Source: a virus (Duplodnaviria > Heunggongvirae > Uroviricota > Caudoviricetes). Taken from it: a stretch of DNA of 4,313 bases. The position numbers were made by a program, and so were the translations under genes. This document shows, in pieces, positions 1 to 4,006 of the stretch; within the stretch, counting starts at the first letter, position 1, and each line of letters opens with the position of its first letter. The DNA is taken from IMG/VR virus record IMGVR_UViG_2778261204_000004. One strand, given 5' to 3'. The notes beneath the pieces are model-generated. The model searched no databases. It saw only the letters and a program-made list of their open reading frames with translations, and had not been told where the DNA came from.

Positions 1-96
1 GACTTCACTGAGAACTGCGCCGATTTTGGTTTCAAATACGCCGCCGTCCAGCTCCCCGATAAATGCCTGCACATCAGTACTGCGTTCGCTAGCCAT
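1..96 (-). CDS. Hypothetical protein, N-terminal 32 codons only; gene continues past the left window edge. Sits at the head of the leftward operon (the position N occupies in lambda), but the visible N-terminus is not arginine-rich and I do not recognise the family.
   Basis: Reverse complement of 1-96 reads ATG GCT AGC GAA CGC ... = MASERSTDVQAFIGELDGGVFETKIGAVLSEV with no stop to the window edge. A strong SD (GAGGAG, complement of ~103-108) lies 6-7 nt upstream of the ATG at 96-94. Absent from the ORF track because it is truncated. Confidence 0.5.
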   Translation of the reverse strand, partial: MASERSTDVQAFIGELDGGVFETKIGAVLSEV

Positions 97-144
97 TTTG
101 CTGCTCCTCATCATATCGACCCTGCAAGGTCGGTTGGTTTCTCC

Positions 145-233
145 ACAAAACAGAGAAGAACACCTGCGGTGGCAGCCGCCCGGGTGGATTGGGTTATGAG
201 CCCGTCGTCCGGTGATGCTCTTCTCTGTTTTGT
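145..233 (-). other. Long imperfect stem-loop (15-bp perfect stem 145-159 / 219-233, plus 4 bp 161-164 / 211-214, GC-rich structured interior). Candidate cis-regulatory RNA element in the leader of the leftward gene; strand not certain.
   Basis: acaaaacagagaaga (145-159) is the exact reverse complement of tcttctctgttttgt (219-233); cacc (161-164) pairs with ggtg (211-214). The interior 165-210 contains further short GC stems such as gcgg..ccgc. No convincing ORF covers it. Confidence 0.3.
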
Positions 234-279
234 AAAAAGAGCGGTACCAGCCGGAAGCAAGTGTACAAACTGGTACCGC
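231..279 (-). terminator. Candidate Rho-independent terminator for leftward transcription: 10-bp perfect stem followed on the minus strand by a U-tract.
   Basis: gcggtaccag (241-250) and ctggtaccgc (270-279) are perfect reverse complements with a 19-nt loop. On the minus strand the hairpin is followed directly by TCTTTTTACA (complement of 231-240). There is no T-tract after it on the plus strand. Confidence 0.45.
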
Positions 280-691
280 CAAAGCAGTGGCTGTTGTGGT
301 GGGGTTGTCACTTAAGCGTATGGTCAACCTGACAACCCGGTGCCACTAATGGGGTAAGGATAACCCCGCCATACTTACCGCCGCGCCATTTCGCGGATTA
401 CCACAACGCTGAGAGCACTTAGCCAGTTATGGCACCACACTTTGTCGCGGCTCCATAAATGCCCTCATCGTTGCACCCTGGTCTCTTCCCAGGCGTCAAA
501 CCGAATCGCCACGCTGGTTAGGCGTCTTATCAGCATCATCATTGACTTGCACATTCCGGCTACCTGGTTTGTTTGCCCGAGCAAGGAGTGGATTGTCCCC
601 TTTAACGTCCCCAGACCGCTAACGACGCATGTGCCATACGCCGTGTTACAACCAACCTTTCGTTAACAACAGTCTGTTGTTTGTTCAGATA

Positions 692-735
692 ATAATGCTA
701 CTAAAAGTAGCAAAAATCAACAACAAAAAGTAGAA
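692..735 (-). promoter_or_regulatory. OL/PL-like module: leftward sigma70-like promoter (-35 TTGATT at 720-715, -10 CATTAT at 697-692, minus strand) with a 15-bp palindromic operator-like site (gctactaaaagtagc, 697-711) in the spacer, and a second AAGTAG half-site 23 bp away (728-733).
   Basis: The minus-strand 17-bp spacer tttgctacttttagtag is 15/17 identical to the spacer of the PR-like promoter at 3081-3097 (tttgctattttaagtag). Both are flanked by TTGnnn and CAT(C/T)AT hexamers. The palindrome has perfect 6-bp arms, gctact / agtagc. Confidence 0.45.
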
Positions 736-2318: not shown

Positions 2319-3059
2319 TTAAAGTCGATTATATTTAATCGACTCATGAATCAGTGCCTTACCCATAACATAAAGCTGATCTTGCGACTTCTCATCAATG
2401 TACCATTTCTCATAGGCGGGGTTATCCGAAAGAACAGCTAGTTTGTTGCCTTGCATTTGTAGACGTTTAACATGGAAAGTCTTACCGTAAACGAAAGAGT
2501 AAACTCCATCAGTCTGGAAGTGGCGAACGGAAATGTCGACAAACAATCGATCCCCGGAAACAAGAGTTGGGGACATACTATCTCCATTTACCGTCATAAC
2601 TTTTATATCATTCTGAGAACGGTTTCCGAAAAGAGAACGGGCATGTTCAGTTGTGAACTCAATGGCGTAGAGCACATCAACATAGTCTGAAAGCATATAG
2701 GTCCCAGGTCCTGCGCTAACGCTAAGATCCAAAACTTCTATCCTGTATACATCGGGCTTTGTTGGATTGGGGATGCTTGCCATTTCCTTACATTCCTCTC
2801 TATCTCCAACACCATATTCTAGATATGAAGCTGATACCCCAAGAGCCAACGCAAGTTTACTCATGACAGAGACACGTGGCTTCGCTGCGCCGATTGTGTA
2901 TCGACGAGCCATTTCATATGTAACGCCCACAAGACTTTTGAGTTGAGTGACAGAGATTCCTTTGATTGTCATCAATTCGTTTAGTCTCTTGGCGAAATCT
3001 GGATACTTCTGTTCTTCTACCATAGGTAGAAGATTACTCACATCACACGCGCTAGTCAT
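2319..3059 (-). CDS. Phage cI-like repressor: N-terminal XRE/Cro-CI type HTH plus C-terminal S24 (LexA/UmuD-like) self-cleaving peptidase domain.
   Basis: HTH-like segment FAKRLNELMTIKGISVTQLKSLVGVTYEMARRY. S24 catalytic dyad context: nucleophile Ser in VNGDSMSPTL and the general-base Lys in HVKRLQ. Divergent from a Cro-like gene. The track ORF begins at TTG 3080; I prefer the in-frame ATG at 3059 (protein MTSACD...), so the start is uncertain and the transcript may be leaderless. Confidence 0.88.
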   Translation of the reverse strand: MTSACDVSNLLPMVEEQKYPDFAKRLNELMTIKGISVTQLKSLVGVTYEMARRYTIGAAKPRVSVMSKLALALGVSASYLEYGVGDREECKEMASIPNPTKPDVYRIEVLDLSVSAGPGTYMLSDYVDVLYAIEFTTEHARSLFGNRSQNDIKVMTVNGDSMSPTLVSGDRLFVDISVRHFQTDGVYSFVYGKTFHVKRLQMQGNKLAVLSDNPAYEKWYIDEKSQDQLYVMGKALIHESIKYNRL

Positions 3060-3129
3060 TTCTATTTTAAGTAGTTGCAATTTGCTATTTTAAGTAGCAT
3101 CATCCCTCTGAATTTCAGAGGAGAAAGGC
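3060..3129. promoter_or_regulatory. OR-like divergent control region: two 13-bp direct repeats ctattttaagtag (3062-3074 and 3085-3097, spaced 23 bp) with partial dyad symmetry. PR-like promoter for the Cro-like gene: -35 TTGCAA 3075-3080, -10 CATCAT 3098-3103. Strong SD GGAG(A) at ~3119-3124.
   Basis: Repeats read directly from the sequence. The second repeat sits in the 17-bp spacer of the PR-like promoter, mirroring the arrangement at 692-720. On the minus strand a TAAAAT -10-like hexamer sits 4 nt upstream of the cI ATG, consistent with a leaderless PRM-like transcript. Confidence 0.6.
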
Positions 3130-3393
3130 ATGTCATCTCAAAACTACACAGAGAAAGCAGTAAAGGCTGCGGGAAAATCTTTATCTGAAGTAGCCCGTCG
3201 CTTTGGTTTTAAGTCCACTCAATCCGTCGCTAATTGGGTAATTAACAATCAAGTCCCGTCAGAACGGGTTTTACAACTTTGTGAGTTGGGAAACTGGTCC
3301 GTGACCCCTCATGAACTGCGTCCTGATATTTACCCCAATCCAAATGATGGATTACCTGAGTGCTATTCAAAAGTTAGCGGTTCAGCTGCGTAA
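3130..3393 (+). CDS. Cro-like small HTH DNA-binding protein (YdaS/Cro-type), 87 aa.
   Basis: Divergent from the repressor, with a strong SD. HTH-like segment SLSEVARRFGFKSTQSVANWV and a C-terminal ELRPDIYP motif that I recall from YdaS-type Cro proteins of Rac-like prophages. Recognition is from memory, not a search. Confidence 0.8.
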   Translation: MSSQNYTEKAVKAAGKSLSEVARRFGFKSTQSVANWVINNQVPSERVLQLCELGNWSVTPHELRPDIYPNPNDGLPECYSKVSGSAA

Positions 3394-3421: not shown

Positions 3422-4006
3422 GTGGGTAAAGAACCTGAATGGAAAGTTGATAAGCAACCAGCATGGCTGGTGGCAGCAATACGAAGAACGATTGCTGATT
3501 TACCTCATGGCTATGAGGAAGCAGCGGAAATTCTTGGTTTGTATAAATCTGATGATATCACCCCAGCGAAAGATCAATTGCATAACAGACTGCGTAGCGG
3601 TGGGGATCAAATTTTTCCACTTGAGTGGGCCATGGTTTTACAGGATGCCAGTGGTACCAGGCATGTAACGGATGCGATAGCGCGTCGTAGTAATGGGGTG
3701 TTTGTGCCGCTGGTGGACATTGATGACATTGACAATGGTGACATTAATCAGCGGCTGATGGAGTCAATAGAATGGATTGGCAAGCATTCCCAGTACTTAC
3801 GCAAGGCAACTGCTGATGGAGTTATTGACCAGGCTGAGCGTGAGCAAATCGAAGAGAACAGCTACCAAGTAATGGCGAAGTGGCAGGAGCATTTGACACT
3901 GTTATTTCGTGTTTTTTGTGCGCCGGAAAAGAGTAACGCCCGCGAGTGTGCAGCTCCGGGCGTCGTGGCGTCGATTGCTTCTGGTTGTGGAGAAACTAAC
4001 GCATGA
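3422..4006 (+). CDS. Phage CII-like regulatory protein (resembles the CP76 / phage regulatory CII family). Start assigned to GTG 3422; the track ORF extends upstream to ATG 3311.
   Basis: Long ORF immediately downstream of cro. GTG 3422 is the first start-capable codon after the cro stop (3391-3393) and has an ideally spaced SD GAGGAA (3410-3415). The upstream in-frame ATGs at 3311 and 3344 lack an SD and would overlap cro by 50-83 nt. The segment [54 protein letters not shown] resembles phage CII (CP76-type) proteins as far as I recall; family assignment is tentative. Confidence 0.7.

Follow-up and report, generated by a model that had tools for sequence, protein, structure and literature searches.

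Upstream of the first leftward gene of this prophage, a perfect inverted repeat followed by a U-tract is encoded on the minus strand, which raises the question of whether early-left transcripts end there and, if so, how the genes behind the barrier are reached. The analysis covers a stretch of 4313 nt, referred to as the window, whose sequence and gene content identify it as the immunity region of an SfV/cdtI/mEp460-type lambdoid Escherichia coli prophage. Its leftmost 665 nt are 97-98% identical to the phages cdtI, Ayreon, 2H10 and PhiR47_1, and the same degree of identity over this part is found for many Stx2c-converting phages and, in two pieces, for mEp460. Across the whole window, prophages of E. 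coli 30EVA1, O145:H28 RM12761 and others reach 99% identity, and 4819 of 5426 complete E. coli genomes match some part of it. The first leftward gene is yfdP, annotated as such in strain 30EVA1, followed by yfdQ and yfdR. From position 115 leftwards the sequence is 100% identical to K-12 yfdP; homology to the K-12 CPS-53 prophage begins only at this point, so that the leader and the terminator are absent there, and K-12 Term-seq data are therefore unusable for the locus. The features considered below are collected in Table 1.

Table 1. Features of the 4313-nt window, listed from left to right, with the strand and the basis or context of each assignment
Feature	Position	Strand	Basis or context
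Small hairpin (134-115), Shine-Dalgarno GAGGAG (107-102) and ATG (95-93) of yfdP	93..134	minus	sequence
Very stable long hairpin directly 3' of the terminator	139..238	minus	fold
U-tract UCUUUUU	234..240	minus	sequence
Terminator hairpin; 10-bp perfect stem with 7 G-C pairs, 19-nt pyrimidine-rich loop	241..279	minus	inverted repeat and fold
STnc100-like structured RNA body ("module B"); closing stem GUUGUGGU/ACCACAAC around three hairpins	293..407	minus	fold
Connecting hairpin between module C and the STnc100-like body	409..465	minus	local fold
"Module C", conserved pseudoknotted RNA element	466..644	minus	covariance model and covariation
PL-like early leftward promoter; -35 TTGATT (720-715), 17-nt spacer, -10 CATTAT (697-692)	692..720	minus	hexamers read from sequence
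Operator TTGCTACTTTTAGTAG in the promoter spacer	713-698	minus	16-mer repeat search
ParA-like ATPase gene	1009-2094	minus	between cI and the left operator
cI-type repressor gene (HTH and S24 peptidase)	2319-3080	minus	gene/family calls
Cro/YdaS-type gene	3130-3393	plus	gene/family calls
CII (CP76)-type gene	3' of the Cro/YdaS-type gene	plus	gene/family calls

The direction of transcription across the hairpin follows from its surroundings. The -35 and -10 elements of the PL-like promoter are our own reading, the promoter scan listing none in 1-1000, and transcription would start near 685; the equivalent site of cdtI reads TTGACA-16-CATAAT. The operator 16-mer TTGCTAYTTTWAGTAG occurs in three copies, one at 698-713 on the minus strand and two in OR (3059-3074 and 3082-3097), against 0.08 expected, and none of 200 shuffles reaches three. 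Homology among phages of differing repressors begins at 655-665, just downstream of PL, as expected for an immunity-specific OL/PL. Since this operator is shared with OR, the cI/Cro/CII-type genes lie to its right and yfdP has its start codon at 95 (minus strand), the leader is assigned to minus-strand transcription. Comparison of mechanically defined open reading frames with Pfam gives no frame of a known family in 96-690, and none of them is credible; the cdtI and mEp460 records disagree on the frames annotated in this region. The leader (96-685) has about 55% G+C, versus about 30-39% in the AT-rich sequence to its right (approximately 700-2400), and it folds far better than its shuffles (z = -4.3). 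The lack of a family frame, the contrast in G+C and the strong folding together point to an untranslated early-left leader of about 590 nt. The order of a PL-like promoter, a long untranslated leader and a first leftward gene, as put forward in a sequence-only reading of the locus, is borne out by the operator shared with OR and by the start codon of yfdP, and the RNA of roughly 400-450 nt which that reading derived from the promoter agrees with the length of about 450 nt that a transcript ending at the hairpin would have. Inside the leader, neither the promoter scan nor inspection by eye revealed a sigma-70-like promoter able to drive the STnc100-like body; because no internal promoter was found, the leader RNA should be silent in the lysogen.

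To the right of the left operator, the window carries a ParA/AAA_31-type ATPase gene of low G+C content (about 37%), inserted between cI and OL/PL in the slot that rexAB occupies in lambda. It has its own strong terminator-like site (973-954, minus strand) and is absent from cdtI; a PADLOC scan of this moron gene returned a marginal match only (Drt5, E 0.007).

The terminator hairpin is formed by the arms GCGGTACCAG (241-250) and CTGGTACCGC (270-279), which pair perfectly over 10 bp with 19 nt between them, and a G280-U240 wobble can lengthen the stem. Immediately 3' of the stem, the minus strand reads TCTTTTTAC (240-232), also written UCUUUUUAC, and the RNA 3' end is expected at about 234-236; on the plus strand no T-run lies beyond the hairpin. 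The folding energy amounts to -19.1 kcal/mol for the hairpin alone and -21.2 kcal/mol with its flanks, and the local fold of 76 nt around it has a z-score of -3.4. It is the sole perfect stem of at least 10 bp with a loop of at most 25 nt in the window. In 300 dinucleotide shuffles such stems arise at 0.11 per window, a value that falls to 0.017 if a T-tract is also required on either strand. The perfect 10-bp stem with its minus-strand U-tract upstream of the leftward gene start, as described in the earlier reading, is thus confirmed.

Intrinsic terminators are recognized by a G+C-rich stem of about 5-14 bp, a loop of typically 3-8 nt and a U-tract 3' of the stem. The hairpin has such a stem, a U-tract on one strand only and a pairing that is kept while the sequence changes. 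Its loop of 19 nt lies outside the usual 3-8 nt and has no stable internal pairing; a loop of this size usually lowers the expected efficiency of termination without excluding the class, and the loops at the same site in homologues range from 4-6 nt up to 43 nt. The consensus terminator scan, which limits loops to 8 nt, missed the hairpin for this reason. The unusual size of the loop is one of the observations in favor of a different function, namely that the hairpin serves the structure or processing of the leader RNA (as a target of an RNase or of Hfq, or by presenting a seed in its loop) or is a DNA palindrome bound by a protein. The same reading gains from the pyrimidine-rich character of the loop (CUUGCUUCC, UCCUU, CCCUU), which is better conserved in the closest alleles than expected, and from the GGTACC present in each arm.

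Comparison with related phages bears on this alternative directly. A set of 76 viral contigs that likewise have the long hairpin downstream keeps the terminator hairpin, and most of its variants are compatible with wobble pairing (G-U at the base, U-G). In the allele L096, GGTGCC/GGCACC replaces GGTACC/GGTACC, an A-U to G-C double change accompanied by a wholly different loop, and the allele L058 represents the G-U wobble intermediate. At the same position ST64B carries GUCGGCGUC...GACGCCGAC followed by CUUUUU, phiNP has the stem of ST64B with another loop, and phiES15 presents a textbook GCCCGC-UUUCGG-GCGGGC with U7. Over a set of 129 loci that share the upstream spacer UGCUGUGUGNAGUCYU, a hairpin (cutoff -7 kcal/mol or stronger) with an immediate T-run (U-run of at least 4) is found in 114, with at least 33 distinct stem starts. 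Among the closest alleles true compensatory changes are few, and the bulk of the evidence is the replacement of stems between mosaic modules. The comparison across these loci shows selection for a hairpin with a U-run at this place, not for this particular stem. A constant hairpin and U-run with differing stems is the signature of an intrinsic terminator, as the earlier reading had proposed for the minus strand.

The alternative function is accordingly an unlikely one. The feature kept across unrelated stems is the immediate U-run, on one strand only, and some homologues present classical terminators with short loops there (phiES15, GGCCCGGGCGCCCCGGGC with U7). A DNA palindrome would need no U-tract and would not tolerate complete replacement of the stem, and a role as an Hfq site would be an added function instead of a competing one, as a terminator can also serve in that way. 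Judged by its sequence features, this is an authentic intrinsic-terminator element, conserved and of a familiar type, whose setting has not been described before.

The same tail of the hairpin had been read as a boxA-like element. The minus-strand string CGCTCTTTTTACA quoted for it is correct and matches YGCTCTTTA at 8 of 9 positions, which might suggest that CGCUCUUUUUACA is the boxA of a nut-like site at which NusB/NusE, alone or together with a phage N-like factor, would assemble for processive antitermination. This match is at the level of chance, however: the window contains three matches of at least this quality where 1.93 are expected, and 61 of 200 shuffles reach the same result. The core also varies among alleles (CGCUCUUU, CGUCCUUU, CGCCCUUU), and distant homologues have different tails. 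In the closest alleles the tails are CGC-UCUUUUU (31 contexts), CGU-CCUUUUU (22) and CGC-CCUUUUU (6), so that the GCUCU letters become GUCCU or GCCCU in about half of them. Farther out these letters are missing, and the tails read GCC-CUUUUU, GCA-CCUUUUUU, GGC-AUUUUUUU and others, the U-run being the sole constant. Moreover, three nucleotides of the would-be boxA are base-paired in the terminator stem, no boxB-type hairpin with a GNRA-like pentaloop was found next to the site, and the ORF list and the family search of 96-690 gave neither an N gene nor an N-like arginine-rich frame in the leader. Some GCUCUUUAA-like strings were seen by eye 3' of a few loci carrying module C (described below), and YGCTCTTTA lies within 300 nt downstream in only 1 of 88 such loci. 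A perfect CGCTCTTTAACAG does follow the terminator of one homologue (L220); its AT-rich context is unrelated, and the case was set aside as coincidence. A functional boxA is therefore very improbable at this site, and the comparison of alleles indicates that the resemblance is an accident of one sequence variant.

The RNA that would precede the terminator provides a more specific context. Upstream of the hairpin, the fold of 281-410 (minus strand) reproduces the STnc100 architecture of a closing stem, internal hairpins, a spacer and a terminator. Module B belongs to a diverse family that is also found in other phages, where each copy is followed by its own hairpin and U-run (CCCUUUUU), sometimes in tandem with a sister type. 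In phage P1 the closing stem shows the compensatory change from GUUGUCA/UGACAAC to GUUGCCA/UGGCAAC. The sister module, with the same closing stem, occurs in SfV, SfII, SfIV, ST64B, phiES15, mEp460_4F5 and P1, and the leaders that carry it score 33.4-40.6 bits against the Rfam family STnc100 (RF02076), below the gathering score of 47. In mEp460_4F5, a close relative, the identical hairpin GGCGGUACCAG...CUGGUACCGCUCUUUUU with its U-tract is aligned as the 3' terminator of STnc100 (36.3 bits, E 1e-6 locally, terminator at model positions of about 170-206). For the window itself, Rfam searches at E <=1 over its whole length and at E <=10 over 215-450 gave nothing meaningful, and its own body has no STnc100 match. 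By the fold and by the alignment in the relative, the predicted terminator belongs to an RNA cassette of the STnc100-like type that forms part of the PL leader.

Two further observations concern the distribution of these modules. In mEp460_4F5 (L137), a small gene at 1988-2356 separates PL from the STnc100-like module within the leader; the window lacks this gene, the product of which resembles, by eye, an AlpA/excisionase-like helix-turn-helix protein. In P1 (L003), relatives of three leader modules are found in the ban operon at 4863-4956, 3496-3615 and 2487-2672, all on the ban strand and interspersed with three tRNA genes: the module-B-like element adjoins an annotated dicF-like region, the STnc100-like element follows upl/tciA and module C stands just before ban.

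STnc100, EcOnc27 and PasD are prophage sRNAs that associate with Hfq and end in intrinsic terminators; EcOnc27 was recognized as an RNA that binds Hfq, and the Pas sRNAs emerged from Hfq RIL-seq (bioRxiv 10.64898/2026.05.13.724894; PMC12711010; PMC8550237). In strains that carry them as prophages, canonical STnc100, EcOnc27 and PasD have been detected bound to Hfq (PMC8550237; PMC12711010). The leader RNA resembles STnc100, also known as EcOnc27/sRNA103, and the related PasD in its long closing stem (UGGUGAAU...CACCA), internal hairpins, spacer and GC-rich hairpin with a U-run, and it shares with STnc100 and PasD a prophage-borne, modular character. The location is different. Canonical copies of STnc100 and EcOnc27 lie in the late region downstream of stx2B (PMC12711010) and those of PasD near the Q antiterminator gene and lpxR (bioRxiv 10.64898/2026.05.13.724894), whereas the present cassette is placed in the PL leader, lacks a visible promoter of its own and leads into early-left genes. 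Unlike the canonical RNAs, it is expected to be silent in the lysogen. Identity with a named Pas sRNA of EPEC was considered and rejected: PasB maps between tail genes of prophage PP6, and PasA, PasC and PasD are late-region sRNAs (bioRxiv 10.64898/2026.05.13.724894).

The sequence-only reading had left two roles for the hairpin, a premature stop relieved by antitermination or the 3' end of a discrete noncoding RNA. The second gains the more direct support, in that the same hairpin aligns as the terminator of the STnc100 model in a close relative; relief by antitermination may also apply. What is shown directly is how the hairpin is built, that it exceeds chance expectation, how it is oriented with respect to operator and gene, that it is conserved although its stems change, and that it aligns with the STnc100 terminator in the close relative. 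It is likely that 241-279 and the U-tract constitute a minus-strand Rho-independent terminator, located about 450 nt into the PL transcript, which forms the 3' end of an STnc100-like leader RNA and attenuates the early-left operon. That transcripts actually end at the site, with what efficiency, and whether polymerases pass by passive leakage or by promoted read-through (for example by module C), are points that we infer.

In the proposed sequence of events, the repressor-controlled PL would fire leftward and the polymerase would meet the terminator about 450 nt later. A polymerase stopping there would release a noncoding leader RNA composed of module C, the connecting hairpin (local fold of 405-480 on the minus strand, -29.2 kcal/mol, z = -2.7) and the STnc100-like body, and this RNA may undergo further trimming. 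A polymerase reading through would transcribe the long hairpin and then yfdP-yfdQ-yfdR, continuing in cdtI to the excisionase gene. The terminator would in this way both make the RNA 3' end and attenuate the early-left operon. In concept, this arrangement is close to that of the StxS-type sRNAs, which Sy et al. (PNAS 2020) reportedly traced to a phage operon transcript that starts at the late promoter PR' and ends early, a stop overridden by Q: the idea common to both is that a terminator within the leader supplies a regulatory RNA and that the operon is expressed by read-through. The present promoter is PL instead of PR', and no antiterminator is known here, in contrast to Q.

Directly behind the terminator, the long hairpin has core arms at 145-169 and 209-233 and a perfect lower stem of 15 bp, and its 5' arm includes the U-tract; the fold of 139-238 reaches -48.3 kcal/mol with z = -7.05. 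By eye, a G-C to A-U compensatory change is seen in the lower stem in ST64B, and the apical part differs in phiNP and L096. By analogy, the element is a candidate RNase III processing site or a second barrier. The PL leader of phage lambda contains nutL, with boxA and boxB, and an RNase III-sensitive hairpin before N. The present locus is similar in having a long untranslated leader with a large hairpin just upstream of the ribosome-binding site of the first gene, and it differs in that no N gene, boxB or conserved boxA was found. To our knowledge, lambda has no terminator between PL and the first gene, whereas one is present here. As a separate observation, the 16-mer UUGUGGAGAAAC(C/U)AAC is found 3' of the long leader hairpin (133-148, minus strand) and again at 3985-4000 on the plus strand, ahead of the next rightward gene, whose start lies at about 4003, and may represent a ribosome-binding or junction sequence shared by module boundaries.

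The question of how the barrier is passed leads to the promoter-proximal part of the leader. Module C, an element of about 165-185 nt, is recognized in the window by a custom covariance model (R2) with 148 bits and E 1e-43. An alignment of 22 representatives below 94% identity contains the invariant blocks UGGCACAUG, AGCGGUC, GGUAGCCGGAAUGUGCAAG, CACCA...GGCG...GGUGUGA and GAAGAG. Its structure consists of four helices and a pseudoknot formed by CACC and GGUG, the P5 loop reading GAAGAGA, with 98.4% of cells paired and 10 pairs changed on both sides; the covariation is 0.287 versus 0.113 in shuffles (0/500) and at most 0.069 in slid controls. No match to module C was found in Rfam, and a literature search with its sequence strings found no paper. 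It is present as one copy per locus in prophages from no fewer than 12 genera of Enterobacterales, as well as in P1 and in phiV10-type phages, usually 30-90 nt after a promoter-like site. A hairpin with a U-run follows within 450 nt in 65 of 88 loci, at a median distance of 237 nt. In phiV10, module C is followed by tRNA-Arg, a terminator and a gene, in this order, and in P1 the element lies between tRNA-Ile and ban. These features make module C a candidate cis-acting element for read-through or processing. The leaders of ST64B (L134), phiNP (L135) and mEp460_4F5 (L137), which have no module C, contain another conserved 5' hairpin, GCGAACAGGCAGGACGCCCACGAAGUAGCC...GAUGAUUCGC, within the first ~70 nt after their PL-like promoters, and this may be an alternative promoter-proximal module.

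A put-like mechanism would account for passage of the terminator. According to this reading the terminator is a checkpoint that is normally overridden, module C modifying RNA polymerase soon after the start at PL, and only unmodified polymerases stop. HK022 offers the natural comparison: it is likewise a lambdoid phage without N function, and its putL region also combines a repressor-controlled PL, a structured leader RNA, one or more intrinsic terminators and early-left genes, with promoter, antiterminator RNA and terminators in the same order. The first hairpin of module C with adjoining sequence (623-648, minus strand) has three short blocks in common with HK022 putL (L127 6239-6313, minus strand), ACGGCG, CAUGCGUCGnnAGCG and CGG(C)AAUG, again in the same order; they may reflect distant homology or coincidence. 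The leader has no N-type gene that could be found, module C is a pseudoknotted RNA supported by covariation, and both its distance from promoter-like sites and the hairpins with U-runs downstream of it in most loci speak for this reading. In addition, terminator-ended cassettes stand one behind the other in operon leaders, an arrangement that needs read-through.

Other observations weaken this reading, which we regard as doubtful. A put covariance model (R1) built from seven putL sequences (HK022, phiEt88, UPF_BP1, CobraSix, S9-5, HK639 and PdC23) recovers HK022 putR as a positive control (E 2e-8) but gives nothing at E <=10 in the window leader; it finds no match in SfV-type, ST64B, phiNP, phiES15 or P1 leaders, and its best score in any related locus searched is E 0.087. 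Compared with put, at about 70 nt, module C is much longer and single-copy, and in the present locus the terminator stands about 230 nt further on, beyond another RNA module. Each phage region has one module C and none after PR, unlike putL and putR; in 16 kb spanning both operons no second copy after PR was found. No HK022-type put RNA was thus found in the leader. Furthermore, the leaders of ST64B, phiNP, phiES15 and mEp460_4F5 keep the terminator without module C, and in P1 module C lies downstream of a tRNA gene and not beside a promoter. Read-through may be merely partial. Only tentatively, then, can the PL leader be pictured as a modular RNA operon and not a passive UTR, in which module C, as a widespread new class of pseudoknotted phage RNA, would help transcription past 241-279 and past the terminators of tandem sRNA/tRNA cassettes.

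The preferred reading, in which the hairpin is the terminator of an STnc100-like leader RNA, has consequences for the biology of these prophages. Taken alone the terminator is ordinary; it fixes the expected end of the early-left leader RNA in a very common family of prophages of E. coli, Shigella and Salmonella, including those of the SfV, cdtI, mEp460 and Stx2c types. With it, the range of the STnc100/PasD-type sRNA cassette of prophages widens beyond the late region to an early leader close to the immunity genes. In these N-less phages a real barrier stands between PL and the first gene, and the way in which it is passed becomes a testable question, for which module C, just upstream, is the obvious candidate and the most interesting object nearby. 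If module C does influence RNA polymerase or RNA processing in cis, it would represent a second, larger put-like system in N-less lambdoid phages.
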